From Acidobacteriota bacterium (lineage in GTDB: Bacteria > Acidobacteriota > Polarisedimenticolia > JACPZX01), in contig JACPZX010000067.1 of the NCBI GenBank assembly GCA_016195325.1, positions 15,559-79,558 on the forward strand: 64,000 nt of DNA. The letters run 5' to 3'. The position numbers were made by a program, and so were the translations under genes. The notes under the pieces were generated by a model. The model saw only the letters and a list, made by a program, of their open reading frames with translations, searched no databases and was not told the origin of the DNA. Position 1 is the stretch's first letter. Each line of letters begins with the position of its first letter. Positions 2,531-23,847 of this stretch are shown one piece after another.

Positions 2531-3739
2531 TCACAGCGCCGGAAGCGAGCTGGCGCTTTCCGGATCCTCTTCGCCCTTCTTCCCGAGGAGCCTCGCCCTC
2601 GTGATGGCGGCCTCTCCGAAGGCGTGGCGCACGGCGTCCTCGGCCGCCGCGGCGCGCTCCCCGAGCGCCCGCTCGGGATCGGGGAAGAGATCCGGCTGAT
2701 CGATCGCGCAGGCGGGCTCGAGATGGGAGACGCCGAGGCCGAGGAGCCTCACCCCTTTCCCTCCCAGGTCGACCCTCTCCCTGAGGAGAGCCGTGGCCAC
2801 CGCGTGGATCTCGCCGGCGAAGCGCGTCGGTCCCCCGAGCGTGACGGAGCGCGTCCAGGTCGTGAAATCCCCCGCTCTCACCTTCAAGCTGACCGTCCAC
2901 CCCTGCAGGCCGTCGTCCCTCAGCTTCCTCGCGACGCCGTCCGCGCGCGCGAGGAGCTGCCGCCCGATCTCGCCCTCGTCGGTGAGGTCCACCGCGTACG
3001 TGCGCTCCTCGCTGATCGACTTCGCCTCGCGAGACGGCTCGACCTTTCGATCGTCGCGGCCGGCGGCGAGGGCGCGTAGGTGATCCGTCAGCCGATCGCC
3101 GAGCCGGGCGCCGAGGCGTGCGCGCGGGGCGCGCAGGATGTCTCCCACCGTCCGGAGACCCAGGCCCTTGAGGGAGTCGGCCGTCTTCGGCCCGACCCCC
3201 CAGAGGGCCCGCACCGGGAGGGGCCAGAGGCGCGACGGGACGTCCTCGATCGGGAGGACGACGAGACCGTCGGGCTTGTCCAGCTCGGAGGCGATCTTCG
3301 CGAGGAACTTGTTCGGCGCGACGCCGACGGACGCGGTGAGCCCCTCCTCCGCTCGAATCCTTTCCTTGAGACGCCGCCCCGCGGCCCCGGCGTCCTGAAG
3401 CGATCGGGAGATGCCGGTCAGGTCGAGAAAGGCCTCGTCGATCGAGAGGGGCTCGACCACGGGGGAGAAGTCGTCGAGGAGGCGCAGGATCCTCCGCGAG
3501 ACCTCGACGTAGAGCTCCATGCGGCCGGGAAGCCACGTCCCCCCGGGGCAGAGGCGTTCCGCCGTGACGCTAGGCATCGCGCTCCGCACGCCGAATTCCC
3601 GCGCCTCGTAGGAGCAGGTGGAGACGACGCCGCGGGGGCCGCGGTGCCCGATGATGAGGGGAAGTCCCGCGAGCTTCGGATTCTCTCGCACCTCGACCGA
3701 GGCGTAGAAGGCGTCCATGTCGAGGTGGAGGACGATCAA
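2531..3739 (-). CDS. dinB: DNA polymerase IV (Y-family translesion polymerase)
   Basis: IVLHLDMDAFYASVEVRENPKL...SIDEAFLDLTG...GVGPKT are canonical DinB motifs. The likely TTG start at 3739 gives MIVLHLDMD. The alternative ATG at 3718 would start at MDAFYAS. Confidence 0.85.
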   Translation of the reverse strand: MIVLHLDMDAFYASVEVRENPKLAGLPLIIGHRGPRGVVSTCSYEAREFGVRSAMPSVTAERLCPGGTWLPGRMELYVEVSRRILRLLDDFSPVVEPLSIDEAFLDLTGISRSLQDAGAAGRRLKERIRAEEGLTASVGVAPNKFLAKIASELDKPDGLVVLPIEDVPSRLWPLPVRALWGVGPKTADSLKGLGLRTVGDILRAPRARLGARLGDRLTDHLRALAAGRDDRKVEPSREAKSISEERTYAVDLTDEGEIGRQLLARADGVARKLRDDGLQGWTVSLKVRAGDFTTWTRSVTLGGPTRFAGEIHAVATALLRERVDLGGKGVRLLGLGVSHLEPACAIDQPDLFPDPERALGERAAAAEDAVRHAFGEAAITRARLLGKKGEEDPESASSLPAL

Positions 3740-4119
3740 AACTTGGTCAGGCGCCTTTTCGCGGCCGCCTCTTCCTCGGCGGTCGGGATGTGGGTCACCG
3801 CCTTCGTCACCGGCGTCATGTAGATGAACCCCTTGCCGGGGAGATCCATCTGCCCCGCCTCGATCATCGCCTCGAAGATGGCGTCGGCCCTCTCCGCGGC
3901 CGCGACGATGTCGATGACCTCCTTCTCCGGGCTGATCGCGACCTTGAGGAGGACCATCAGCCGCTCGCGGATCCCCGAGCCCCGCGCGAAGTGGATCGTC
4001 GCGGCCGGGGCGCCGGCGCGCATCGCGGCCTTCACGACCTCGTCGGCTCGTCCCCGCTCGACGATGCACGTGATGAGCTGAAGGTTCGTGAGGTACTTGC
4101 GCTTGCGCGGCTCCGTCAT
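3736..4119 (-). CDS. P-II (GlnB)-like signal-transduction protein
   Basis: 127 aa. LQLITCIVERGRADEVVKAAMRAGAPAATIHFARGSGIRER fits the GlnB/P-II fold with a T-loop-like RGSGxRER segment. It overlaps the dinB start and the DUF1538 gene stop by 4 nt. Confidence 0.65.
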   Translation of the reverse strand: MTEPRKRKYLTNLQLITCIVERGRADEVVKAAMRAGAPAATIHFARGSGIRERLMVLLKVAISPEKEVIDIVAAAERADAIFEAMIEAGQMDLPGKGFIYMTPVTKAVTHIPTAEEEAAAKRRLTKF

Positions 4120-5774
4120 GCGGCGGCCCCGCGAACGGCCGGCTCATGGCTCGGCGCGGTCCGGAGGAGAAGGCCGACGGTGAGCACCGAGACCACCGGC
4201 CCGGCGCTCGCGAGGCTCAGGATCCCGAAGCCGTCGGCCGCCCCGGGAAGGTTGCCGCTGAGGCCGAGCCCGATGGCGACGACCAGCGGCACGGTGAAGG
4301 GCCCCGTCGTCGTGGCCCCGGCGTCCCACCCGATGCTGACGAACTCCTCCGTCGAGACGAGCGAGAGGACGAGCAGCAGCAGGTACGTCGGGACGAGGAG
4401 CCACGCGAACGGAATCTCGAAGATGATCCGGGCCACGCCGAGCGCCATCCCGGCGCCGACGCCGAAGGCGACCGCCTGCACGAGGAGCGCCTTGCGGAAG
4501 GCGCCGACCGTGATCTGCTCGACCTGCAGGCCCATCGAGTTCAGCGCGGGCTCGGCGAGCGTCGCTCCGTATCCCAGAAGGAGCGCGAAGACGAGGATGA
4601 TCCCCTTCCCCACCGCGCTCCCGTACAGGGGGCCGAACGCGACAGGCGGAGTCCCGAGGAGGACCCGCGCGAAGGCGCCGGGGGCGACCCCCCCGACCTG
4701 ATCGCCGAGGGGGGTCAGCCCGGCGGCGAGCCCCACGTTGAACAGCACCAGCCCGAAGAGGGCGAAGGAGAGGCCGACCGCGACCTCGTCGCCGGCCGCG
4801 ATCCGCTCGCGCAGGAGGAAGACTTGCACCGCGAAGAGGAAGATCGTGAGGGGCAGGATCGCCTGCGACGACGAGATGAGGGCGTCGAGCCATGGGCCGG
4901 CGGGCGCGCCCGCCCCGGGCCCGGCTGCCGCGGCCGCGACCGCCGCGACGCCGTGTCCGGCCGCTCCCGAGTAGTGGATCAAGAAGGCGACGCCGAGCGT
5001 CGCGAGGATCGGGAAAAGCGAGATGAGCGTCACCGCGCCGAACCCCGACATCCCGGTGTCGACGCGCCCGGACGCGTTGCACACGCCGAGGCCGAGGCCG
5101 AGGACGAGCGGCACCGTGATGGGGCCGACGATGACGGCGCCGAAATCCCACGCGAGGCCGATGATCCCGCGGAGCGCCGGGACGGCGTACGCCCACGCGG
5201 TCAGCCCGAGGAGCAGGAGGACGATCGGCACGAGGAGGCGCTTGAGGGGCCAGTTGAGGAGGAAGCGCAGCGTGCCGAGGAGGACCGCGGTCCCGACCGC
5301 GGCGGCGACCGCCGCCGCGAGCGCCCCCGCGTAGCGGTTCAACAGCGCGTGGAGAAGAGGCGCCTGCGCCTCGTCGATCCCGGCGCCGGCCGCCCGCAGC
5401 GCGCCCATCGCGGGCTCCGCGTACGTCGCCCCGACCCCCACGAGGAAGGCGAAGCCGAGGATTGTCGGGAGGGAGGTCCTCTTCGGGAGCGAGTTGCCGA
5501 TCGCCTCGCCGACGGGCATCAGCCAGAGCCTGAGCCCATCCATGAAGAAGAGGAGGCCGATGACCACCGCGAGGACGGCCAGGCAGATCGGAATCGAGTG
5601 GAGGATCGAGGTTCGCAGGATCACGACCTGGAAGAGAAGCAGGTACGCGATCACCGGGAGGACCGAGCGGAGCTGCTCGACGAGGCGGGCGCGGAAATGG
5701 TGACCGAGGATCGTGCAGGCCTCGGCGAAGGAGACGCGGATCCTCCCCTCGCCGTGAAGCTGCTCGTAGGTCAT
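4116..5774 (-). CDS. tandem DUF1538-domain polytopic membrane protein (putative transporter)
   Basis: Starts at MTYEQLHGEG. There are two internal repeats, each with a GATYAEPA / GATLAEPALN signature and many TM helices. It is co-transcribed with the P-II-like gene. Confidence 0.6.
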   Translation of the reverse strand: MTYEQLHGEGRIRVSFAEACTILGHHFRARLVEQLRSVLPVIAYLLLFQVVILRTSILHSIPICLAVLAVVIGLLFFMDGLRLWLMPVGEAIGNSLPKRTSLPTILGFAFLVGVGATYAEPAMGALRAAGAGIDEAQAPLLHALLNRYAGALAAAVAAAVGTAVLLGTLRFLLNWPLKRLLVPIVLLLLGLTAWAYAVPALRGIIGLAWDFGAVIVGPITVPLVLGLGLGVCNASGRVDTGMSGFGAVTLISLFPILATLGVAFLIHYSGAAGHGVAAVAAAAAGPGAGAPAGPWLDALISSSQAILPLTIFLFAVQVFLLRERIAAGDEVAVGLSFALFGLVLFNVGLAAGLTPLGDQVGGVAPGAFARVLLGTPPVAFGPLYGSAVGKGIILVFALLLGYGATLAEPALNSMGLQVEQITVGAFRKALLVQAVAFGVGAGMALGVARIIFEIPFAWLLVPTYLLLLVLSLVSTEEFVSIGWDAGATTTGPFTVPLVVAIGLGLSGNLPGAADGFGILSLASAGPVVSVLTVGLLLRTAPSHEPAVRGAAA

Positions 5775-5917
5775 CTCGATCGACGGGCGACGCGCCAACC
5801 TCGAACCCTCCCCTGGGGCGCGGAAAGCGGGCACCTTACACGAACCGCGGAGGATTCCTCAACCGACCCCGCCGGGTGTTAGTCTGCGGCCATGACGCTC
5901 GCGAGGACCGCCGGTCC

Positions 5918-6577: not shown

Positions 6578-7936
6578 CTACGGCTCGAGCAGCAGGTGGA
6601 GGATCGCGTCGTGAAAGGCCGGGCTCTGCGTCAGCCCCTTGTGCGACTCGCAGAGGAACATCGCCGTGGGAGTCGGGACACCCTGAAGGAGGCTCGCGCG
6701 CGTCACCGTGTCGTCCCCCGGCGCGCTCATCACCCCCGAAAGCGCCGGCGTCCCCAGTCCCGGCGGCAGGTCGGCGGGATCGAAGTACGTATGGTAGGCC
6801 GACCCGTCGAACTGAACGACGGCGCGCGACGGCGTGGGGGTGCAGTCCCCCCCGAGCGCGGCGTAGCGCACCCGCCCCTCGAGGTCCCACTCCCCCTCGA
6901 GAGCCTCCCGAAAGCGCCGCGCCCGATCGAGCGCCCACCTGGCGAACCGGCGTGACGCCTCCATCCTCTCGAGGTAGACCTTCTCCGACCCCTCGCGGCC
7001 GATCCTCGCCCGGAGCTTGTCGCGAAGATCCCGCCGGGCGTCCGGGCTGAAGACCGACCAGCCGAGCTTCTCCCAAGTGGCCACGTCGTAGATGTCGTCC
7101 GCGACAGGCGCGCCGTCCACGTCGACGAGGTAGCTCGGCCCCGGCGCCGGGAGGAGCTGGTAGGCCGCGGGCATCGTGAAGATCGCCTCGGGGGGGAGGA
7201 GCCTCGGCACGCGCTCGCCTTCGAGGAGCGACCTCAGGGCGTCGAGGGTCCCTCCGTTCGGTGTCCCCAGGAGGATGACGGTCCCGACGTGCGGCGCCCC
7301 CGCGAAGGTGGGCGCCGACGGCTCCCCCGCGAGGACGTCGCGGCCGCCGTGCCTCACGTAGTAGCGCGCGACGAGGCCGCCGAGGCTGTGCGCGACGAGA
7401 TCGACCTTCCCTCCCGGATCTCCTCGGGCCGAGAGGACGCGATCGATCGCGGCGCCCAGCGCGGCCGCCGTCTCCGGAACGTCCCGGCGCCAGTCGTAGT
7501 CGAACGCGTAGAGATCGGCGCCGGGGCGCGGGTCGTGGATGTCGCCCGGCACGAATCCCCCGGCGTCGCGCAGCGCGCGGATCAGCTTGAGGTAGTACTC
7601 GTGACCCGCCACCTTTTCGATGGGGCCGTCGGGGACGAGCCCGTCCCGATTCCGGAGCGGATCGTCCGCGTCGATCGGGAGATCGAGGAGATCCTTCCCC
7701 GGGTGCGAGGGCCGATAGAGCTTCGCGAGGAACGACACCGCGTTCCCCCAGACGACGCGACCGGTGATCGAGTCCCTCAGGCGCGAGCCGAAGACTCCCG
7801 GAATGAAGACGACCGCGCGCCTGGGCCGGGCCTCGCCGTGATAGATGCCGACCAGATCCGGGTGCATGACCGCGCACGCTGCGACCGCCATCGTCGCCGC
7901 CAGGAGAAGCGGTGCGCGCCGCGCCGCGTCACTCAC
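6578..7936 (-). CDS. secreted alpha/beta hydrolase, LCAT/PGAP1-like lipase family (lipoprotein signal)
   Basis: 452 aa. Signal peptide with AVAAC lipobox. The VDLVAHSLGGLV nucleophile elbow (GHSxG-type) is embedded in a lecithin:cholesterol-acyltransferase-like fold. Confidence 0.55.
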   Translation of the reverse strand: MSDAARRAPLLLAATMAVAACAVMHPDLVGIYHGEARPRRAVVFIPGVFGSRLRDSITGRVVWGNAVSFLAKLYRPSHPGKDLLDLPIDADDPLRNRDGLVPDGPIEKVAGHEYYLKLIRALRDAGGFVPGDIHDPRPGADLYAFDYDWRRDVPETAAALGAAIDRVLSARGDPGGKVDLVAHSLGGLVARYYVRHGGRDVLAGEPSAPTFAGAPHVGTVILLGTPNGGTLDALRSLLEGERVPRLLPPEAIFTMPAAYQLLPAPGPSYLVDVDGAPVADDIYDVATWEKLGWSVFSPDARRDLRDKLRARIGREGSEKVYLERMEASRRFARWALDRARRFREALEGEWDLEGRVRYAALGGDCTPTPSRAVVQFDGSAYHTYFDPADLPPGLGTPALSGVMSAPGDDTVTRASLLQGVPTPTAMFLCESHKGLTQSPAFHDAILHLLLEP

Positions 7937-8531
7937 ACCGCGCCCCCACCTCGACCGTGAAGTCGCGCTCGTCGGGGAAGGTCCCCTTCACGAGCGCTTC
8001 GATCTGGAGGATGCGCGTCGCGCAGGGGCTCGGGACCGCATCGAGGCGGATCCATCGATCCTCCGGCGCCAGCGGGAAGGGCATCGCGATCCAGTTCCGC
8101 GCGCCGGGGAAGTGCGACCCCTCCTTGCGGGTGAAGATCGCCGTGTCGTAGCGCACCTTGAGCCACGCGGCCCCCGCCGGAACCGTCCCCTCGTAGATCG
8201 TCCGCTTCCGTCCCTTGTCCGTGAGAATCAGCGTGGCCGGATCGTCCTCCTTCCGCGCGATCAGCTCCTTCTTGCTGATGTCGATGGCGCGCCCCGGGAG
8301 ATTCTTCCCCTCGATCGGCCGGCCGTAGGTGATCGTCTTGAGCTCCTGGAGCGCGCGATAGTCGGGGCGACCCGAGTTCGGATCGACGGGACCGTCGCCG
8401 CAGAAGACGAGCTTCACGTAGAAGATCCCCGCGTCCTCGTCCTGCACCTTGACGACCGGCAGCGAGTTCTTGAAGACGATGCGCCACGGCGTTTCGGAGG
8501 CGGGGGCCGGGTCCGGGGGGGCCGCGAGCAT
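7929..8531 (-). CDS. hypothetical secreted protein
   Basis: 200 aa from ATG 8531 (or TTG 8552 giving MILGILLMLAAP). The N-terminus is hydrophobic and there are no recognisable motifs. The N-terminal 280 aa of the ORF-track entry is R/G junk. Confidence 0.4.
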   Translation of the reverse strand: MLAAPPDPAPASETPWRIVFKNSLPVVKVQDEDAGIFYVKLVFCGDGPVDPNSGRPDYRALQELKTITYGRPIEGKNLPGRAIDISKKELIARKEDDPATLILTDKGRKRTIYEGTVPAGAAWLKVRYDTAIFTRKEGSHFPGARNWIAMPFPLAPEDRWIRLDAVPSPCATRILQIEALVKGTFPDERDFTVEVGARCE

Positions 8532-8548: not shown

Positions 8549-9556
8549 TCAACGCGCCCTCGGCCCCGCCGCGAGGATGCGCGCGAGGAGCGCCGGATCG
8601 TCCGGCAGCAGCACCGAGCCCGGCAGGCGCGGGACGAGCGCCAGCCACGCCGCGTTCATGCGGAAGCAGCGGGCGAAGACCGGGATCGACTCGTCCACGC
8701 GCTTCATCGAGACGAGCGCGACCGCGTGCCAGAAGACGAACTCGTCGCTTCCGGGGACGAGCTCCTCCGCCTGCGAGTAGAGCTTCAGCGCGTCCTCCGC
8801 GCGGTTCTCGGTGACGGCGTCGTCCCCCGCGTTCTCGACGCGGTAGGCGCGCGCCAGCCCCACGAGCCGGCGCAGCTCCACGATGGGATCGGGGTGATCG
8901 TCGACGCGGAGATCGAAGAGACGGTCCTTCCACGGAGAGGCCGACCTCTTCGGCCCGACGACGAGGAGCGCGGCCGACTGGCGCCCCCGGATGTCCCCGC
9001 CGGCCTTCTGCGCCGCCTCGAGCGCGGCGAGCATCCGCTCCGCGAGATCCCCCTTCGAGCGCTCGAACGCCTCGGCCATCGCGGGCCAGACCGACGCGTC
9101 GGCCATCAGGTTCGCCTGGGCGGAGAAGCCGGCGCCGGTCTTGTGCCCGGCCGCGGCGATGCAGTGGCTTCCGGTGTGCGCCGCGACCTTCCCCGACGCG
9201 TCGACCATCGCGACCTGCCGCACGTCCTGGTGCTCGTCCTTCGCCAGCAGCGCGGCCAGCGCCTCGGGGGCGCTCTTCCCCTCCTTCATGAGCGCGAGGC
9301 CGAGGGGTCCGTAGCTCGCCTCGACGAAGCTCTGGGTCGCGACCGCGCCGACCCCCGGCTCGGCCCACGGGACGACCGCGCCCACGGAGAACCAGTGCGA
9401 CTGCACGGCGACGCCCATCTCCCCCGTCGCCTCGTCGCGCGCGACGATCGAGAAGGTGTGGACCGGGCGCGCGAAGGAGGACTCCTCCGCGCGGAGGGAG
9501 CCCCCGGTGATGAGCCAGCCGGAGACGAGAGCGACGGTGACGACGCTTCGGCGCAT
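8549..9556 (-). CDS. DUF1028-family Ntn-hydrolase-like protein (secreted)
   Basis: Signal peptide followed by HTFSIVARDEATGEMGVAVQSHWFSVG. This is the hallmark FSIVARD N-terminal nucleophile motif of DUF1028. Confidence 0.6.
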   Translation of the reverse strand: MRRSVVTVALVSGWLITGGSLRAEESSFARPVHTFSIVARDEATGEMGVAVQSHWFSVGAVVPWAEPGVGAVATQSFVEASYGPLGLALMKEGKSAPEALAALLAKDEHQDVRQVAMVDASGKVAAHTGSHCIAAAGHKTGAGFSAQANLMADASVWPAMAEAFERSKGDLAERMLAALEAAQKAGGDIRGRQSAALLVVGPKRSASPWKDRLFDLRVDDHPDPIVELRRLVGLARAYRVENAGDDAVTENRAEDALKLYSQAEELVPGSDEFVFWHAVALVSMKRVDESIPVFARCFRMNAAWLALVPRLPGSVLLPDDPALLARILAAGPRAR

Positions 9557-9584
9557 GGGATCCTCCTTGAAGGAAGGCCTCATT

Positions 9585-11126
9585 CTACCAGCGGGGTCCT
9601 GATCCGCGATCGATCACCGCGAGGCGGCGCCCTCCGGGGAGCGCGGCGGGAAGCGGCCCCGATCGCGCGGCGGCGACGAGCGCCGCGCGGGCGGCGAGCT
9701 CCTCGGGAAGAAAGGCGCCGGGCTCGTAGGCGATGAGCGAGAAGGCCCCGGATTCGATCGCGGCGCGGGCGCCTTCGGGAGGCAGAAGGCGCGCGCGGCT
9801 CGCGAGCCGCCCGCCGTCGCACAGCGCCGCCAGGGTGTCGGCCTCGGCGAGCCCCTCGATCCCCGCCGCCCGGACGTAGATCGGCGGGTAGTTCCGCACC
9901 TCGATCGCCACCTCGCGGTTCGCGGCCTCGCGCATCGCCGCGACGGAGCCGAGGGACGGCCGGTAGACGACCGCGAGAGGCCGCTCCGGCTCGACGCGAT
10001 CGGCGGCGGCGCAGAAGCCGTCGCGCACCGTGCGGTGGATCCTCCCGGCCTCGTCGAGGAACGCCTCGTCGTTGCGGACGCCGACGGCGAAGTAGACGCA
10101 GACGAGCGCGAGGAGGGCGGCCGCCGGCCGGCGCCACGCGGGCGCCCGCGCGATCGCGAGATCGAGCGCGGCGGCGACGACGCACGCGGCCCCGAGAAGG
10201 GGAAAGTACCGGTACCGGGGAGGCTGGAACTCGATCAGCATCGTGGGAGCCGTCCCGACGAGCATGACGAGAAGGCCGAACCGCGCGAGCTTCCCCCCGC
10301 GCCACCAGACGAGCGCCCAGACGACGGCGACCGGGACGATGAGCCACGCCGCCGGGGGATCTCCCGCCGGAACACCGAGCGCCGCGAGGTGCGACGCCGC
10401 GAGCCGGCCCACGAAGCCGAGGTCGGCGCGGTAGTAGTTCTGGTGTTCCCCCCGCACGCCGAGGAGGATCGCGGCGTGGGCGGCGTCGATCGCGGCGAGA
10501 AGCGCCGGCCCGGCCCAGCGCGACGGGCGCGCGCGCGAGAGTCCCTCGGGAGTGAAGAGAATGATCCACGCGGCGGCGACAGGCAGCGCCATGACCCCGC
10601 TCTCCTTCGAGAGGACGGCGAAGATCCCCGCCGCGCCGATCGCGGCGAGCCAGCGGGCGCGCCCGGTCGCGAGCCAGCGCCGCTGCGCGGCGAGCGCCAG
10701 GAGGATCCCGGTGATGACGAGGACGTGCGGGCGCCCGCCGAGCCAGAGCACGGCCTCGTCCAGCCGGTAGTGAAGCCCCCACCACGCCGCCCCCCAGAAG
10801 GGGGCGAACCACTCCCCCGAGAGCGCGGAGCGCAGGAGCGCGAAGAGGAGAGCGACGTTGAGCAGGTGGAACGCGAGCCCCGTGAGGTTGTAGATCCACG
10901 GCGCGGTGCCGGCCACCAGCGCGTCGAATCCCGCGGTCGCGTTCATGACGGGGGTGACGAACCCGCTGAAGAGGGAGAAGGCGAGCGAGGGCTCGGCGCG
11001 CACGCGCAGCGCGAAGCGGACCCACTCGAGATCGTCGCCGACGAAATCGTTGTCGAGACCAGGGGCGTACGCCGCCAGGACGCACGCGAGAAGGAACGCC
11101 GCCGCCAGAGTCCGGCGGGAGTTCAA
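9585..11126 (-). CDS. PMT/GT39-like polytopic membrane protein, paralog 2
   Basis: 513 aa. The N-terminus carries the LDNDFVGDD loop motif seen in protein-O-mannosyltransferase-like enzymes. About 10 TM helices plus a C-terminal soluble domain. It overlaps the upstream gene by 4 nt. Confidence 0.55.
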   Translation of the reverse strand: MNSRRTLAAAFLLACVLAAYAPGLDNDFVGDDLEWVRFALRVRAEPSLAFSLFSGFVTPVMNATAGFDALVAGTAPWIYNLTGLAFHLLNVALLFALLRSALSGEWFAPFWGAAWWGLHYRLDEAVLWLGGRPHVLVITGILLALAAQRRWLATGRARWLAAIGAAGIFAVLSKESGVMALPVAAAWIILFTPEGLSRARPSRWAGPALLAAIDAAHAAILLGVRGEHQNYYRADLGFVGRLAASHLAALGVPAGDPPAAWLIVPVAVVWALVWWRGGKLARFGLLVMLVGTAPTMLIEFQPPRYRYFPLLGAACVVAAALDLAIARAPAWRRPAAALLALVCVYFAVGVRNDEAFLDEAGRIHRTVRDGFCAAADRVEPERPLAVVYRPSLGSVAAMREAANREVAIEVRNYPPIYVRAAGIEGLAEADTLAALCDGGRLASRARLLPPEGARAAIESGAFSLIAYEPGAFLPEELAARAALVAAARSGPLPAALPGGRRLAVIDRGSGPRW

Positions 11127-12418
11127 CGGCCGAGAATCTTGCCGCGCAGGATGAGCATCTGGAGGGCGAGCGACGCCTTCTGGCCGAGCCTCTCGAAGGC
11201 CTGCACGTCGAGCGTCCTGAGGTCGTCCTCGTCGCCGCCATCGCCGTAGAGAACGGAGGCGGTCTTGTCCTTGATCTGGATCGGGAGGAGGAAGGCGGAC
11301 TTCGGCATCGACAGGGCCAGATCCTGGTAGAACCTCCGGATCGACGGGAGGGGGGGGACGGGGCCGAGGTAGTGCGGGCGCCCGTCGTCGATGAGCGAGA
11401 AGAGCGAGTCGCGCACGAGCTCGACGTTCATCCCCTTGATGCGTCCCGGGGAGAGGCCTTCACCCGATCCGTCCCACCCGACCGCGCTGTCGCCGCGGAG
11501 GACGAAGAAGGCCCGGCGCACGAAGAACCGGCCGGCGAACGCGAGGGCCGTCTCCGCGACCTCGTCGGGGGTGGTGCACGCGGCGAGCCGCTTCGCCGCC
11601 TCGACCAGCTCCAGCTCGGGAGAGGCTCCCGGCCCCGTCGAGCGCGGGGGGGGGGCGGGCTCGGGAACGGCGGCGCTGACGGCGGTCCCCGGCGGACCTT
11701 TCTTCTCCATCGCGTCGGCGAACTCCCGCCACGATTTTCCGTAGCCGTACTTCTCCCACGGATCGGCGGGACCCCGGGGGTGCGCTTCGGGGGCCGCGGC
11801 CGCGGGAGAGGACGAGGGAGGCGTGGCGACGGTGGGGGGACGCTCGATCATCACGGCGATCCCGGGGTCCGGCTCATGAGGGTCGGATCCGCCGGGGGGC
11901 GGCGCGGGCGCGCCCGGGGGCCGGATCTTCTCGCCGCGCGAGCGCAGGCGGCTCAGCTCGCGCGCGAGCGTGATGTACCTCTGGCTTCTGGGGATGTTGT
12001 AGTACTTCTCGAGGACCTGGAAGATGCGGATCTCGGGGGCGACCCAGGGATCGATCTTGTACCCGGTGACGAACGAGATCTCGTCGAGCGCCATCAGGTT
12101 CTTCGGATCCATCATCGCGAGCTGCAGGACCTTCCCGTCCATCCGGATCGGGACGACCTTGTATTTTTCGACGAGCTTCGCGGGGATGGCGCGGATGACG
12201 GAGTACGGGACGTTCTGGAGGACGTCGTACGAGGCGTACGGGACGTTGAACGCGTGGGCCAGGGTCTCCCCGAGGGTCTCCTCATCGACGTAGCCCAGCT
12301 CGATCAGGCTCGTCCCGAGATGGCCGCCGAAGATGAGCTGAGCCTTCAGAGCCTTCTCGAGCTGCGCCTCGGTGATGCGGCCGTCGTCGGTGAGGACCTC
12401 GCCGAGTTTCCTGGTCAT
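11123..12418 (-). CDS. MshEN (T2SS-E N-terminal domain) protein with Pro-rich linker and C-terminal GAF-like domain; putative c-di-GMP receptor
   Basis: Starts at MTRKLGEVLTDDGRITEAQLEKALKAQLIFGGHLGTSLIELGYVDEETL, which is a GspE_N/MshEN fold. The linker is PPGAPAPPPGG and the C-terminal domain is uncharacterised. Confidence 0.6.
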   Translation of the reverse strand: MTRKLGEVLTDDGRITEAQLEKALKAQLIFGGHLGTSLIELGYVDEETLGETLAHAFNVPYASYDVLQNVPYSVIRAIPAKLVEKYKVVPIRMDGKVLQLAMMDPKNLMALDEISFVTGYKIDPWVAPEIRIFQVLEKYYNIPRSQRYITLARELSRLRSRGEKIRPPGAPAPPPGGSDPHEPDPGIAVMIERPPTVATPPSSSPAAAAPEAHPRGPADPWEKYGYGKSWREFADAMEKKGPPGTAVSAAVPEPAPPPRSTGPGASPELELVEAAKRLAACTTPDEVAETALAFAGRFFVRRAFFVLRGDSAVGWDGSGEGLSPGRIKGMNVELVRDSLFSLIDDGRPHYLGPVPPLPSIRRFYQDLALSMPKSAFLLPIQIKDKTASVLYGDGGDEDDLRTLDVQAFERLGQKASLALQMLILRGKILGR

Positions 12419-12482
12419 CCGTCTCCGTGCGGCCCTGAGGGCTCGGGCCTCAAGGTTCAATATACGGAAGGGCTTGGCCGCG

Positions 12483-13079
12483 TCAAGAAGCAGCGCCCAC
12501 CCGCGATGCGGCGAGCGACGCGAAGTGGCGGTGGACGCGGCCATCCGGCGTCATCTCGGGGTGGAAGGTGCCGGCCATCACGGCCCCGTGCTGGACCAGG
12601 ACCGGCTCACCGCCGTGGCGCGCGAGCACGTCGATTCCGGCCCCCACGCGGACGATTCGAGGCGCGCGGATGAAGACCATCGGGAGCGGGGCGTCGCCGA
12701 AGACCGCGGCGGGGGCTTCCGCCTCGAACGATTCCCTCTGGCGGCCGTAGGCGTTCCGCTCCACGTCGATATCGAGAAAACCCAGAGACGGCTGCTTCGG
12801 GCCGAAGACCTCCCTCGCGATCAGGATCGCCCCCGCGCACGTGCCGAAGATCGCCCCGCCGCGCGCGCGGAAGGCGCGGAGCGGCGGTTCCAGCCGGAGG
12901 TCCGCGATCAGGCGAAGCAGCGTCGTGCTCTCCCCTCCGGGGAGGATCAGCCCGTCGATCGCGTCGAGCTGCGCCGCGTAGCGGACCTCGATCGACTCGA
13001 TTCCCACGCGCGCGAGGGCGGCGACGTGCGCCGCGAAGTCCCCCTGGAGGGCGAGGACGCCTACCTTCGCCGTCACCAT
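12483..13079 (-). CDS. pdxT: pyridoxal 5'-phosphate synthase glutaminase subunit
   Basis: 198 aa. [10 protein letters not shown]...[10 protein letters not shown]...[10 protein letters not shown] are class-I glutamine amidotransferase motifs with a catalytic Cys. Confidence 0.9.
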
Positions 13080-13954
13080 CCCCTCTTCTGCATGAGCTGA
13101 TCCTCCTTGAGCGTCCCGATCTCGATCCCCGGCATCGCCTCGCCGAGGAGGCCGCTCACCTCGACGAGCACCTTCGGATCGTTGAAGTACGTCGTCGCCT
13201 TCACGATCGCCTCGGCCCGGCGCGCCGGATCCTCTGACTTGAATATCCCCGAGCCAACGAAGATCGCCTCGGCGCCCAGCTGCATCATCAGGGAGGCGTC
13301 CGCGGGGGTCGCGATCCCGCCCGCCGCGAAGTTCGGGACGGGAAGCTTCCCCTCCTTCGCCACGAGGCGAACCAGCTCGCAGGGAGCGGCGAGCTCCTTC
13401 GCCTCGGCCATGAGCTCGTCGTCTCCCAGCGTGCGGAGCCTCCGGACCTGCTCGACGACGCGCCGCATGTGGCGGACCGCCTCGACGATGTTCCCGGAGC
13501 CCGCCTCCCCCTTGGTCCGGATCATGGCGGCCCCTTCCCCGATGCGCCTCAGCGCCTCGCCGAGATCGCGCGCGCCGCACACGAAGGGGACCTTGAACGC
13601 GAACTTGTCGACGTGGTGCTTCTCGTCGGCGGGGGTCAGCACCTCGCTCTCGTCGATGTAGTCGACGCCGAGCTCCGCGAGGATCTGCGCCTCGGCGAAG
13701 TGCCCGATGCGGCACTTGGCCATGACGGGGATCGTGACCGCCTTCATGATCTCCCGGATGATCCTGAGGTTCGCCATGCGGGCGACGCCTCCCTGGGCCC
13801 GGATGTCGGCCGGCACCCGCTCGAGGGCCATCACCGCCGAGGCGCCGGCCTTCTCCGCGATGCGGGCCTGATCGGCGTTGACGACGTCCATGATCACGCC
13901 GCCCTTGAGCATCTCGGCGAGCCCCGTCTTGAGCCTCATCGTCCCTTCAGCCAT
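13073..13954 (-). CDS. pdxS: pyridoxal 5'-phosphate synthase lyase subunit
   Basis: 293 aa. [34 protein letters not shown]...[11 protein letters not shown]...GEAGSGN is near-identical in pattern to PdxS/Pdx1. It overlaps pdxT by 7 nt. Confidence 0.95.
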
Positions 13955-20051: not shown

Positions 20052-21176
20052 TCAACGCGGCTCGTCCGCTTCCGCCGGGATCTGCAGGCCCTCGATCTTC
20101 GCGGTGGTCCTCAGGCGGGAAAGGACGGACGCGATCGCGTCGCCCCGCCTCTTGAGACGGAGTTTTTCGCGGGCGGCGTCCCTGACCTTGTCGTACGTCT
20201 CGAGGCGCCCACCTCGTTCCTCGTAGACCTTCACGACGTGGTAGCCGCTCTCGCTCTCGACGATGCCGGTCATCTCCCCGGGCTTGAGGGCGAAGACCGC
20301 GCGATCGAGAGCCTCCGGGAGCCCTCCCCGCCGGACCCAGCCCACCATCCCGCCGCCCGGGCCCGTCCGATCCTCGGAGATGTCGCGCGCGACCGACTCG
20401 AACGATCTCCCCTCGCGAATCCTGTCGTACCCCTGCGTCAGCTTGACCTGCGCCGCGAGACGCTCCTTCTGGGGCTTGCCGAGCGGCGCGTTCACGAAGA
20501 TCTGCCCGATGCGGAGCCAGCGATCCGGGGTGAAGAGCTCGGGATGGTGGTCGTAGAAGGCGCGCGTCTCGTCGTCCGAGACGGTGAACTTCGCCTCGAT
20601 CTCCGCCTTGACGTACCTTTCGAGCGCCAGGGTCTTGGCGTAGGCGTGCCTCACCTCGGCCTTCGAGAGGCCGCGGCTCCGCTGCGTCGCGAGATACTTC
20701 GACTCGGAGCCCGTGGCGTCGCACTTCTGCGCGTAGATGGCGTCGATCTCGGCGCCCTTGGGCTCGTACCCCGTCCGCACCGCCTCCTGGTAGAGGAGCT
20801 CCTCGTCGATGGCCTTGTCGAGCGCAATCTGGCGCGCCCCGACGTACTTCTCGACCGACTCGGGGTCGCCGTCGCGAACCTGATCCCGCAGCGCGGTGAG
20901 GATCTGATCGTAGGTCGACCGGTAGATCGTCTCGCCGTTGACCGTCGCGATCGGCGGGGTGAGGTGCTCGGCGGGGTCCTCCGCGGCCGGAACCGATTTC
21001 CCCGTCGTCGCGGGCTTCGTCCCGGGCGGCACCGCGGGGGCCGGCGCGGCCGCGGCGGCGTTCGAGTCGGCGGGAGCGGGGGCGACGGCTCCGGCGCCGG
21101 GGGCTCCCTGCCCGCAGGCGGCGAGAAGGAGCCACGCGGCGAGCGCGGGCGCGACGCGGACGGCGTGTCGAGTCAT
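20052..21176 (-). CDS. SurA/PrsA-like parvulin peptidyl-prolyl isomerase lipoprotein
   Basis: Starts MTRHAVRVAPALAAWLLLAACGQ with a lipobox. The C-terminal rotamase motif is GGMVGWVRRGGLPEALDRAVFALKPGEMTGIVESESGYHVVKV. Confidence 0.7.
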   Translation of the reverse strand: MTRHAVRVAPALAAWLLLAACGQGAPGAGAVAPAPADSNAAAAAPAPAVPPGTKPATTGKSVPAAEDPAEHLTPPIATVNGETIYRSTYDQILTALRDQVRDGDPESVEKYVGARQIALDKAIDEELLYQEAVRTGYEPKGAEIDAIYAQKCDATGSESKYLATQRSRGLSKAEVRHAYAKTLALERYVKAEIEAKFTVSDDETRAFYDHHPELFTPDRWLRIGQIFVNAPLGKPQKERLAAQVKLTQGYDRIREGRSFESVARDISEDRTGPGGGMVGWVRRGGLPEALDRAVFALKPGEMTGIVESESGYHVVKVYEERGGRLETYDKVRDAAREKLRLKRRGDAIASVLSRLRTTAKIEGLQIPAEADEPR

Positions 21177-21241
21177 GGGCTGAGATCCCGGGCTTGCGTT
21201 CATCGGAAGGCCGCAGATCATAGGGACGGCGCCGGTTTCTT

Positions 21242-22897
21242 TCAAGGAACGGCCGGTTCGGAGGGCGCGAGCCGCTGGACGGCCTCTCTCGACTCGACCG
21301 ACCCTGGCTCCAGGATCAGGGCCGCCTCGAAATTCCTGAGGGCGCCGGCACGATCCCCCTGCTCCTCACGAAGCCGGCCGGCGAAAACGCGCAGGGGGGC
21401 GAACTCCGGAAAGACGGCCACGCCCCGATCGAGCTCCGATGCGGCCCTCCCTCCCTCCCCTCGCGCGGCGTACGCCCGCGACGCGATGACGTAGTCCTGC
21501 GGCCGGACCAGATCGAGATCGGGATAGTTCGTCGCCGTGTTGAGCGCGAGGAGGGCGAGGACGAGGGCGCCGGCCGCGACGAGGCGGCGGGGGCGCCCCG
21601 ACGCCGCGTCCGCCAGCAGCCGATCGATCCCCAGCCCCGCGAAGACCAGCATGAGCGGAACGTACGGGATGCGGAAGCGCGCGATCACGTAGAACGCCAC
21701 CGTCCCGGCGATCCCCGCCGCGAGGAAGAGGTAGTGCGGCATGAAGCGGCGCCAGGATCCGAAGGACACCACCAGGCCGAGAGCCGCCAGGGGCGAGACC
21801 GCGTAGAAGGTCGGGAGGCCGGCCCGGAGGAGGGGCGAGTTGATCCGGAAGTAGGCGTACGACGCGTTGTTCGGCATCTCGAAGGGGGCGAGGAAGTACG
21901 CGAGCTTTCGGAACTGCAGGGCGATCAGCTCGGAGTAGCGCCCGCGCCACGTCGAGAGGACCGTGCCCATCGTGCCGGCGAGCCCGCCACCGGTCCTCGA
22001 GAGCACCTCGCGGGCGTAGCCGGTGACGCGCGCGTCGTCGCCGTCGAACCAGCCGATGCCGATGTGGTACGGGTTGTTGCCGTTGATGAACTCGATCGGC
22101 CCGCGCGTCGTCGTCCGCAGCGCGGGGGCGCCCACGGCGACGTTCCGGGCGATGGCGGGGGCGAGGGCCAGCAGGAATCCGCACGCGAGCGCGCCGACCG
22201 CGGGCGCGGGGCGCTTCAACTCGCGCGAGAGGAAGATCCACGCGGCCAGGCACGGGAGGAAGATCAGCACGTTCGGCTTCGTCAGGTAGATCGCTCCCGC
22301 CAGCGCACCGGCGATCCCCCAGCGCGCCGGGCCCCCCGCGCGGCGCGCCGCCTCGACCGCGATCAGGAAGACGACGGTGAGCGTGACGAGGAGGGTGTCC
22401 CTGAGAAGGAGCGACTCGTAGTAGAGAAACGGGCCGTAGATCGCCGCGAGCCCCCCCGCCAGGAGCGCCGCCCGCTCCGGGGCGAGGCGGCGCGCGAGCA
22501 GGTACACGCCGGCGGCGGTCACGGCCCCGAGAAGGAACTGGAGCAGGACGACGGAGAGGGGCTCGCGCGGCGCCAGCGCGTAGACGAGCGCCACGAAGTA
22601 GGGATAGAGGGGATCCTGGTGGAAGACCTTCGGACCGTACCAGCCGAGCCACGTCGCCTCCGGCGCGATCGCGCGCTGCCACGGGTGATACGGATGGAAG
22701 TCTTGGCGGCCGAGCCAGTCGCCGTCGACGATCCGCAGCGCCCAGCGGTGGAACGTGTCCATGTCGGAGATCGGATCGGCGTTGATCGCCAGGCACCCGG
22801 TGTCGGCGATGGCCGCCCCATACCCGAGGCGCACGACGATCGCCAGAGTGAAGACGAGGAGCGCCCGCGCGCGCGGGGAGGCGAGAGTCGAGGCCAA
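21242..22897 (-). CDS. PMT/GT39-like polytopic membrane protein with C-terminal TPR, paralog 3
   Basis: Putative TTG start gives MASTLASPRARALLVFTLAIVV. There are about 11 TM helices. The C-terminus has a TPR-like ALRNFEAALILEPGS segment. Confidence 0.55.
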   Translation of the reverse strand: MASTLASPRARALLVFTLAIVVRLGYGAAIADTGCLAINADPISDMDTFHRWALRIVDGDWLGRQDFHPYHPWQRAIAPEATWLGWYGPKVFHQDPLYPYFVALVYALAPREPLSVVLLQFLLGAVTAAGVYLLARRLAPERAALLAGGLAAIYGPFLYYESLLLRDTLLVTLTVVFLIAVEAARRAGGPARWGIAGALAGAIYLTKPNVLIFLPCLAAWIFLSRELKRPAPAVGALACGFLLALAPAIARNVAVGAPALRTTTRGPIEFINGNNPYHIGIGWFDGDDARVTGYAREVLSRTGGGLAGTMGTVLSTWRGRYSELIALQFRKLAYFLAPFEMPNNASYAYFRINSPLLRAGLPTFYAVSPLAALGLVVSFGSWRRFMPHYLFLAAGIAGTVAFYVIARFRIPYVPLMLVFAGLGIDRLLADAASGRPRRLVAAGALVLALLALNTATNYPDLDLVRPQDYVIASRAYAARGEGGRAASELDRGVAVFPEFAPLRVFAGRLREEQGDRAGALRNFEAALILEPGSVESREAVQRLAPSEPAVP

Positions 22898-22908
22898 CGC
22901 GGAGGGCC

Positions 22909-23847
22909 TCAGGGCCCCTTGATCTCGATGTGGCGGATGGAGATCGCCTTGCGCGGGCGGAAGGTGGCGGCGCCGCCGACGCCGTCGACCTCGAGGGCGC
23001 TCAGGGCGTCGAGCACCTCCTGGCCGGCGCGGACGTACGCGAAGAAGGTGTGAAGCCCCTTGTACGCCGGCTGGACGTCGAGGAGGATGAAGAACATCGT
23101 CGCGCTCGTCAGCGTGGTCTCGCGGCGCACCGCCCCGACCAGCCCCCGCCCCGGCCGGATCGACTCGTCGATTTCGGGGGCGAGCTGGTTCTGCCACCCG
23201 CCGTTCCCCGTCCCGGTCGCATCGCCGGTGTCGGCCTCGACGCCGGGCATCACGCGGTAGAACGGCAGCCCGTCGTAGAAACCGCCGCGCGCCAGGTCCA
23301 CGAAGTTCCTGACGTGAACGGGCGCCTGCTCCGGCATGAGGACCATCTCGAGCGTCCCGAGATCGGTCGTCACGACGGCGATCCGATCCCGCTCCCTGTC
23401 GTACGGTGGGGCGATGAAGAAGTCGTAGTGCGACGTCTCCCACTCGCCGCACGTCCAGGCGATGCGAAACCTTCCCGCTTTCCGGATCTTCGCCCGCCGG
23501 CTGACCTCGAGATCGAAACGGCGCTCGGTCCGCGGGGGGAGCATCAGGGCCTTCCCGTCGCCGATCGCTCCCGAGTAGCGCACGGCCTTTCCCTCGCCGA
23601 CCGGGAGGATCGACACGGCGCTCCCCTCGAAGCACGCCTCGGGGACCGTCACCGCGACGTTCGAGGGGTTCTTCAGCGTGAGCTGCATCACGATCCCCTC
23701 GTCGAGATCGTAGGTGAGGCGCGCCACGAGGATCGTCGGCTCGACGCGCGCGATCGCCCCGACGTCCACCGCGCCCTGATCCGCCGCGGCCGGGACCGCC
23801 GCGAGCAGGGCCGCGCACGCCGCGACGGCCGCAAGAGCGCGCGTCAC
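22909..23847 (-). CDS. secreted cyclophilin-type peptidyl-prolyl isomerase with N-terminal extra domain
   Basis: GTG start, signal peptide VTRALAAVAACAALLAAVPAAA. The C-terminal half (HVRNFVDLARGGFYDGLPFYRVMPG...) is a cyclophilin fold. Confidence 0.75.
   Translation of the reverse strand: MTRALAAVAACAALLAAVPAAADQGAVDVGAIARVEPTILVARLTYDLDEGIVMQLTLKNPSNVAVTVPEACFEGSAVSILPVGEGKAVRYSGAIGDGKALMLPPRTERRFDLEVSRRAKIRKAGRFRIAWTCGEWETSHYDFFIAPPYDRERDRIAVVTTDLGTLEMVLMPEQAPVHVRNFVDLARGGFYDGLPFYRVMPGVEADTGDATGTGNGGWQNQLAPEIDESIRPGRGLVGAVRRETTLTSATMFFILLDVQPAYKGLHTFFAYVRAGQEVLDALSALEVDGVGGAATFRPRKAISIRHIEIKGP

Follow-up and report, generated by a model that had tools for sequence, protein, structure and literature searches.

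Does a protein with a second-messenger receptor domain, encoded immediately upstream of a membrane glycosyltransferase, control that enzyme, or does it serve another purpose? This question is raised by a gene pair in a 64,000-nt stretch (hereafter the window) of contig JACPZX010000067.1 from an Acidobacteriota bacterium (assembly GCA_016195325.1, positions 15,559 to 79,558 of the forward strand), a metagenome-assembled genome (MAG) contig with a G+C content of 71%. All coordinates given below are window positions, and all genes from pdxR to the LCAT-like gene lie on the minus strand. The first gene of the pair (11123-12418; NCBI HY049_12750) encodes a soluble protein of 431 aa composed of an MshEN domain, a linker and a GAF domain, and the second (9585-11126; NCBI HY049_12745) encodes a 513-aa protein with a predicted GT-C fold; both are annotated as 'hypothetical protein'. 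MshEN is among the few high-affinity receptor modules for cyclic di-GMP (c-di-GMP), and MshEN proteins that are not ATPases are mostly uncharacterised. A preliminary description, made from the sequence of this DNA, had proposed that the first protein is a stand-alone c-di-GMP receptor controlling the glycosyltransferase. Our analysis favors, with a probability of about 0.55, a reading in which the MshEN–GAF protein is a stand-alone c-di-GMP adaptor and the GT-C gene is a lineage-specific, translationally coupled insertion.

The 431-aa open reading frame (ORF) starts with an ATG at 12418, with GGAG 4 nt upstream; this same Met is the start in 37 of 56 homologs. A longer ORF of 473 aa, starting at 12544, was rejected, since the alignments with the homologs and with the NF053729 and PilB profiles all begin at the Met encoded at 12418. 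The MshEN domain occupies residues 1-150 (11969..12418, minus strand) and comprises a four-helix N-subdomain and an alpha/beta C-subdomain. Pfam PF05157 matched residues 70-144 at 56.1 bits (E 3.7e-15; cutoff 23.1), and the MshE-related NCBIfam model NF053729 ('c-di-GMP_motif') matched residues 4-55 at 52.8 bits (cutoff 38). When the PDB was searched with phmmer, the N-domains of PilF, PilB and MshE were recovered at E values of 1e-14 to 3.5e-35. An AlphaFold model built from the 56 homologs had a mean predicted local distance difference test score (pLDDT) of 85, with values >90 at residues 1-160 and 267-430 and <50 for the greater part of 177-250; the top PDB match of its N-terminal domain in Foldseek was 5htl, MshE with c-di-GMP (template modelling score, TM-score, 0.75; E 1e-9). 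No match to the T2SSE ATPase domain (PF00437) was found in the 431-aa protein. Moreover, the PilB model TIGR02538 was matched solely at profile positions 1-143 of 564 (66 bits versus a cutoff of 676), and the NfrB model NF008411 solely in its MshEN region (482-624; 61.8 bits versus a cutoff of 1170; E 4e-17). An N-terminal MshEN domain lacking the ATPase, as the preliminary description had it, was thus borne out by profiles and by fold.

A candidate c-di-GMP site of 53 residues (12251..12409, minus strand) was delimited by using NF053729 together with per-position conservation in the 56 homologs. Motif I spans K4-Q27 (KLGEVLTDDGRITEAQLEKALKAQ) and motif II spans H33-A56 (HLGTSLIELGYVDEETLGETLAHA); with the spacer LIFGG at residues 28-32, the two 24-residue motifs and the 5-residue spacer reproduce the canonical layout. 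Residues L5, G6, L20, L24, Q27, L34, G35, L49 and L53, the equivalents of MshE L10, G11, L25, L29, Q32, L39, G40, L54 and L58, are retained and are 90-100% conserved in the 56 homologs, and motif II agrees at 8 of 11 defined positions. Lys stands in place of Arg at the first position of motif I, where the family is about evenly divided between K and R. The motifs keep the hydrophobic positions that contact guanine but depart at four positions from the c-di-GMP-binding type that had been assigned to the domain: T10 and R14 sit at two hydrophobic positions of motif I in the window protein, His replaces Arg at motif II position 1 (H33; His in 55 of the 56 homologs), and motif II position 24 is non-polar instead of Gln in 47 of 56 homologs (A56 in the window protein).

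Characterised MshEN domains offer precedents for both binding and loss of binding. In MshE, hydrophobic contacts dominate c-di-GMP binding, and changes of charged residues cost at most about fivefold in affinity (PMC5013675). PilF GSPII-B, with Lys and Leu at the two first positions, binds with a dissociation constant of 6 nM, and PilF GSPII-C, with Pro at motif II position 1, binds at ~0.5 µM; PilF GSPII-A, whose degenerate motif II has 45% consensus, is non-binding (PMC11731258). In XpsE, binding of c-di-GMP was lost by several changes, I19R, R38G and Q61V among them. The domain studied here could also be a degenerate MshEN of the kind found in XpsE-N and PilF GSPII-A, which does not bind the nucleotide; in that case the protein would act as a scaffold or sensor built on its GAF domain, with MshEN serving solely as a protein-interaction module. 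The near-universal His and the usually non-polar last position of motif II, as well as the presence of T10 and R14 where motif I calls for hydrophobic residues, fit such a degenerate domain and recall the losses in XpsE and GSPII-A, but the NF053729 score lies well above its cutoff, the guanine-contacting Leu/Gly positions and Q27 are all conserved, and motif II matches at 8 of 11 positions versus 45% in the non-binding GSPII-A. Lys, Leu and Pro at position 1, moreover, are compatible with high-affinity binding (PMC11731258), and the invariance of H33 suggests function rather than decay. We consider a non-binding domain rather unlikely, and, judging from these residues, binding of c-di-GMP by the MshEN–GAF protein seems somewhat the more probable outcome.

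The Pro-rich linker noted in the preliminary description covers residues 158-265 (11624..11947, minus strand) and is disordered in the AlphaFold model; residues 158-266 contain 26 Pro among 109 residues. Within it lies an island, YGYGxSWR(E/D)hA (residues 224-234; ~11717-11749, minus strand), which is kept in ~40 of 56 homologs and is a candidate docking motif. The C-terminal domain (residues 267-430; 11129..11620, minus strand), which the preliminary description had left uncharacterised, is a GAF fold as judged from its model (pLDDT >90) and Foldseek. The Foldseek matches, all at probability 1.0 and with target-normalised TM-scores of 0.65-0.75, comprised 3oov (0.74), 3trc (0.75), Lcd1 5w10 (0.73), Nlh2 4g3v (0.65) and phytochrome GAFs. 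A pocket in the modelled domain is lined by the near-invariant residues W315, P372, P379, Y391 and D393. Pfam GAF_2 scored below threshold (18.5 bits versus 28.6), yet its alignment spanned profile positions 2-136 of 136, and precomputed PF13185 (GAF_2) annotation was carried by a few homologs. When profiles for MshEN and for the family GAF domain were applied together, 117 ORFs in 85 loci matched both, which indicates that the MshEN–GAF architecture is stable.

The family comprises at least 176 MshEN–GAF homologs. In a scan of GTDB species representatives, 80 MshEN–GAF loci were recovered, nearly all of them labelled Acidobacteriota (Polarisedimenticolia, Thermoanaerobaculia); the few labelled as other phyla are probably misbinned. 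The MshEN–GAF family is thus restricted to Acidobacteriota. Paralogs occur as well, with two loci in one MAG in at least two cases.

The preliminary description had taken the second gene for a PMT/GT39-like membrane glycosyltransferase. Searches of Pfam (E<=10) and NCBIfam (E<=0.01) returned no family for the 513-aa protein, and hence neither PMT (PF02366) nor PMT_2 (PF13231); no MIR domains and no tetratricopeptide repeats (TPR) were found in it, and ortholog P0123 scored 19.7 bits against PMT_2 (cutoff 26.1). In its AlphaFold model (pLDDT 86; predicted TM-score 0.89), however, the fold was clear: the best 31 Foldseek matches, and 34 of the first 35, were GT-C enzymes, including STT3, ArnT (TM-score 0.51-0.53), Pmt4, Pmt1/2, PglB, AglB, EmbB/C, AftD, PimE and ALG3. 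A word-indexed search found five close homologs. When a profile of six orthologs was used, 7,556 cluster representatives were retrieved at E<=1e-3, many of them TPR-tailed and named 'protein O-mannosyl-transferase' or bearing PMT_2, and the transmembrane domain was homologous to TPR-tailed PMT_2 proteins at E 1e-31 to 1e-11. The GT-C family profile gave zero matches among PDB sequences at E<=1, so the GT-C assignment rests on the fold and on remote hidden Markov model links to PMT_2/TPR proteins.

The topology of the 513-aa protein was derived from the positions of its helices and the positive-inside rule. Residues 1-352 (10071..11126, minus strand) form a GT-C membrane domain of 11 transmembrane helices with a cytoplasmic N-terminus, and residues 353-513 (9588..10070, minus strand) form, in the model, a periplasmic alpha/beta domain. 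This C-terminal domain defines a subfamily of ~520 aa, in which R419 is invariant, and stands where most relatives carry a TPR tail. The LDNDFVGDD loop (residues 24-32; 11031..11057, minus strand) was located in the first periplasmic loop, just after the first transmembrane helix, and is invariant in the six orthologs except at F28 (Leu in three). In 60 distant relatives, D31 and D32 are >=90% conserved, and near-invariant residues comprise D31, D32, H87, E124, K174, R304, Y307, P309 and G312; D31 and D32 are a candidate catalytic or metal-binding acidic pair. The conserved polar residues, including E124, K174 and R304/Y305/Y307, all face the periplasm; the loops on the cytoplasmic side (residues 99-106, 149-157, 192-203, 276-282 and 327-333) are short, Arg-rich and at most ~12 residues long. 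From its modelled fold, the description that best fits the 513-aa protein is that of a glycosyltransferase with the GT-C fold, from an unclassified subfamily with kinship to bacterial PMT_2/TPR proteins, and not that of a GT39 PMT; of the earlier claim, the polytopic membrane protein, its LDNDFVGDD loop and a GT-C fold stand, and the PMT/GT39 assignment, for which no sequence threshold was passed, does not. A second, canonical GT-C gene (PMT_2, 57.9 bits; 21242-23818, minus strand) lies ~10 kb away and adjoins a SurA-like peptidyl-prolyl isomerase (rotamase) gene (20052-21245, minus strand); this PMT_2–rotamase arrangement recurs in the relatives L001 and L006.

The two genes of the pair overlap by 4 nt, as had been described: in the sequence TTGA (11123..11126, minus strand), the TTG start of the GT-C gene (11124-11126) lies on the TGA stop of the MshEN–GAF gene (11123-11125). 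This junction is identical in four loci, namely the window, L001 (GCA_975957375), L002 (GCA_964400605) and L007/L008, and wherever the GT-C gene fills the slot behind the MshEN–GAF gene, its start overlaps that gene's stop. From this sequence arrangement, the two genes are probably co-transcribed and translationally coupled in this lineage. A GC-rich hairpin of 6 G-C pairs with an 8-nt loop (11099-11118, minus strand) begins 6 nt past the TTG start and could make initiation dependent on ribosomes finishing the MshEN–GAF gene; the sequence of the hairpin is conserved neither in L002 nor in L007.

Does the pairing persist across the family? In the 80 species-representative loci, GT-C relatives were sought by hmmsearch of six-frame ORFs within ±6 kb, and were found at one locus (1/80), that of the L002 genome. 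In the close clade, defined as relatives at 59-77% identity, the slot between the MshEN–GAF gene and the DUF1028 gene holds the GT-C gene in four genomes (those in which the overlap was seen), is empty in three and holds an unrelated gene in one. The MshEN–GAF gene is followed directly by DUF1028 in L006 (P0013; assembly GCA_964568735.1), L103 (P0024) and L104 (P0025), and the slot in L102 (P0008; L102:5527-6663) is occupied by an unrelated 378-aa gene with a weak Peptidase_MA-like match; L102, L103 and L104 are single metagenome contigs. As candidates for a GT-C gene relocated nearby, a 532-aa protein without a Pfam match in L006 and this 378-aa slot protein in L102 were considered and rejected, neither being homologous to GT-C. 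P0019 is accompanied by the GT-C gene and P0025 is not, though the two are mutually closest among 14 sequences compared, which shows that the presence of the GT-C gene is patchy. Among ten metagenomic loci of a sister GT-C subfamily, none (0/10) had an MshEN–GAF neighbor. The synteny of the pair, as expected from the preliminary description, was thus largely wanting: one of 80 species loci, about half of the close clade, and none of the sister-subfamily loci.

At one of the ten sister-subfamily loci (L092:4001-8109, plus strand), the GT-C gene is followed after 285 nt by a gene for a PilB-type ATPase (MshEN and T2SSE), an adjacency that may point to pilin glycosylation or be fortuitous.

These comparisons bear directly on the idea of a dedicated receptor, in which the MshEN–GAF protein would bind the GT-C enzyme and switch its activity, as a split, two-protein analogue of NfrB. 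The TTGA overlap kept in four loci speaks for it, as does the fact that the GT-C gene, if present, is always directly downstream of the MshEN–GAF gene, but the pair is missing in 79 of 80 species loci and in about half of the closest relatives, and the sister GT-C subfamily is unpaired with MshEN–GAF. The catalytic residues of the GT-C protein and its C-terminal domain are, moreover, periplasmic and its cytoplasmic loops do not exceed ~12 residues, so that little surface is offered to a cytoplasmic regulator. In BcsA and PgaCD, the catalytic domains are cytoplasmic and the enzymes are not of the GT-C type. The N-terminal domain does align to the MshEN region of NfrB (NF008411 482-624), the one glycosyltransferase described as MshEN-controlled, which is activated by c-di-GMP on its MshEN domain, but the glycosyltransferase domain of NfrB is a cytoplasmic family-2 domain and not GT-C (PMC8669469). 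Weighing these points, we regard a dedicated receptor as unlikely. Of the claim that the receptor controls the glycosyltransferase, the MshEN domain without ATPase, the GT-C fold and the conserved TTGA junction remain as support; patchy synteny and a periplasm-facing enzyme tell against it. For c-di-GMP control of GT-C as the general function of the family, the comparative sequence evidence argues against.

A neighbor kept far more faithfully than the GT-C gene was found on the other side of the MshEN–GAF gene. Directly upstream on the same strand lie, in order of transcription, a MocR-type pdxR (~14002-15534/15648), pdxS (13073-13954) and pdxT (12483-13079). The arrangement pdxR-pdxS-pdxT was present, with gaps of 28-110 nt, at every ortholog locus examined at 41%-77% identity (L001-L004, L006, L007, L012-L019 and L102-L104). 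Orthologs from Polarisedimenticolia that are 41-47% identical keep pdxR-pdxS-pdxT upstream and have other genes downstream (GHL15, SnoaL, RNase R); in the broader set of species representatives, pdxRST was found upstream in 8 of 80 loci. This adjacency would fit a link to vitamin B6 (pyridoxal 5'-phosphate), in which the GAF domain senses a B6 vitamer, or c-di-GMP is tied to PdxST/PdxR, and the GT-C gene is incidental. However, more distant MshEN–GAF paralogs lie in unrelated contexts with no pdx genes nearby, the gene order could persist by descent within one class, and a promoter-like site and a weak terminator-like hairpin separate pdxT from the MshEN–GAF gene. The promoter candidate is sigma-70-like (TTGACG-16-TATATT; 12459..12486, minus strand), overlaps the pdxT stop and lies ~40 nt upstream of the MshEN–GAF start; it matches 10 of 12 positions, which is a consensus match only, and 2 such sites occur in 10 kb versus 0.2 expected. 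We know of no biochemical precedent for a B6 link, and consider it highly improbable despite the conserved gene order.

Other recurrent partners were also sought. When six-frame ORFs around the 80 loci were clustered, no consistent partner was found, in an analysis that is noisy in these high-GC genomes; at the representative locus L052, Pfam identified SSB and BNR proteins only. In a Terriglobia MAG, the distant paralog P0068 (L005:5083-6906, plus strand) is directly preceded by two PF27840 'ScmC' genes with weak P-loop-like matches; a literature search for PF27840 'ScmC' gave unrelated acronyms only. A motif scan of the window ORFs revealed no GGDEF/GGEEF or HD-GYP signatures. At another locus, a response-regulator–PilZ gene (L009:8575-9300, minus strand) lies 1.3 kb from the MshEN–GAF paralog P0119, which indicates that c-di-GMP effectors exist in these lineages.

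Downstream of the GT-C gene on the same strand, the genes named in the preliminary description were all confirmed. DUF1028 (Ntn-hydrolase-like, with a TPR-like tail; E 3e-77) is encoded at 8549-9583, and the true start of this gene is likely the Met at 9556, before a signal-peptide-like segment. It is followed by a ~200-aa protein with an N-terminal hydrophobic segment and no family match (~7929-8531) and by an LCAT-like alpha/beta hydrolase (6578-7936; 30.8 bits, cutoff 21). Further on, pairs of genes for a DUF1538 membrane protein and P-II (window 4116-5834, minus strand, and downstream) are collinear in L001, L002 and L007, and a Y-family polymerase gene (window 2531-4147) is likewise collinear across close relatives; this collinearity indicates that the whole region is syntenic by descent.

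How do the two proteins compare with known systems? With MshE (Vibrio cholerae, 5HTL), PilB (Myxococcus xanthus) and PilF (Thermus thermophilus GSPII-B/C), the MshEN–GAF protein has in common the fold, the two-motif layout, the Leu/Gly cage and the Gln of motif I, and its N-terminal domain is 30% identical to that of MshE. Whereas those proteins carry a T2SSE ATPase, it carries instead a GAF domain on a long disordered linker, and it differs from them in the invariant His for Arg and the missing terminal Gln of motif II and in the Thr and Arg of motif I. In NfrB of Escherichia coli, too, MshEN and a membrane glycosyltransferase are genetically linked. However, NfrB is one polypeptide with a C-terminal MshEN and a cytoplasmic family-2 (processive synthase) glycosyltransferase with DxD/TED/QxxRW, whereas here the glycosyltransferase is a separate GT-C protein with a periplasmic active site and the linkage is not conserved in relatives. 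The GT-C protein shares with ArnT (GT83), Pmt1/2/4 (GT39) and STT3/PglB/AglB (GT66) the fold, the acidic pair of loop 1 and the periplasm-side Lys/Arg/Tyr; the MIR domains of PMT and a TMTC-like TPR tail are both absent, and a subfamily-specific periplasmic alpha/beta domain is present instead. A GAF domain is found in a c-di-GMP effector, as would be the case here, in PelD (GAF plus degenerate GGDEF), which controls a polysaccharide machine, and in PdtaS (a c-di-GMP-binding GAF). PelD uses a GGDEF I-site, whereas the nucleotide module of the MshEN–GAF protein would be MshEN, and the sequence similarity of its GAF domain to known GAF families is below threshold.

The reading that we favor, of a stand-alone adaptor with an inserted GT-C gene, can be stated as follows. 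The MshEN–GAF protein would be a second-messenger adaptor without enzymatic activity, located in the cytoplasm and belonging to a family specific to Acidobacteriota; its MshEN four-helix subdomain would bind one c-di-GMP via the conserved hydrophobic Leu/Gly cage. Because no ATPase or other catalytic output is present, the signal would be handed on by protein-protein contacts, made by the linker island, by the GAF domain or by both; the GAF domain might in addition hold a second small ligand or help the protein to dimerise. The GT-C fold and the conserved periplasm-facing DD/E/K/R-Y residues suggest that the 513-aa protein takes its sugar from a polyprenyl-phosphate-linked donor and transfers it to an envelope acceptor, for whose recognition its own periplasmic C-terminal domain would serve. 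The GT-C gene fills a variable slot between the pdxRST–MshEN-GAF block and DUF1028, and we infer that the core function of the MshEN–GAF protein is independent of the glycosyltransferase, any regulatory link being at most a lineage-specific addition. That the adaptor relays the c-di-GMP level to the periplasm-facing GT-C enzyme, via its Arg-rich cytoplasmic loops or by control of insertion or stability, appears to us quite improbable.

Several observations weigh against the stand-alone adaptor with an inserted GT-C gene. The relaxed motif of Wang et al. 2016, [RKPN]hGxxhhxx[GAS]hhxxxxhxxxhxx[QNKRYWST], is failed by both motifs of the window protein, by motif I at positions 7 (T10) and 11 (R14) and by motif II at positions 1 (H33) and 24 (A56). 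R14 is equivalent to I19, and I19R figures among the eight changes given for XpsE, which does not bind. Moreover, conservation of the TTGA junction reflects selection for tight co-expression, which a functional partnership would also give, and the absence of the GT-C gene in relatives is an absence from the surroundings of the MshEN–GAF locus.

That MshEN is fused to varied outputs has already been established (PMC5013675). For the MshEN–GAF fusion, no description was found in a limited literature search, and there was none in PMC12943098 or in the receptor review PMC10519070. What is new here is a receptor of a known kind in a variant form, whose second motif is of a His type specific to the family. 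The practical value of these data lies mainly in a corrected and sharper annotation. If c-di-GMP control of the GT-C enzyme were true, it would be the first for a polyprenyl-phosphate-dependent GT-C enzyme, and also the first two-protein, in-trans MshEN switch for envelope glycosylation. The MshEN–linker–GAF family delineated by this analysis is widespread in Acidobacteriota, with paralogs inside single genomes and a distinctive His-containing motif II. If its members bind c-di-GMP, they would add a class of stand-alone adaptors in a poorly studied, mostly uncultured phylum, and would reveal the extent to which the MshEN motif can diverge while still binding its ligand.

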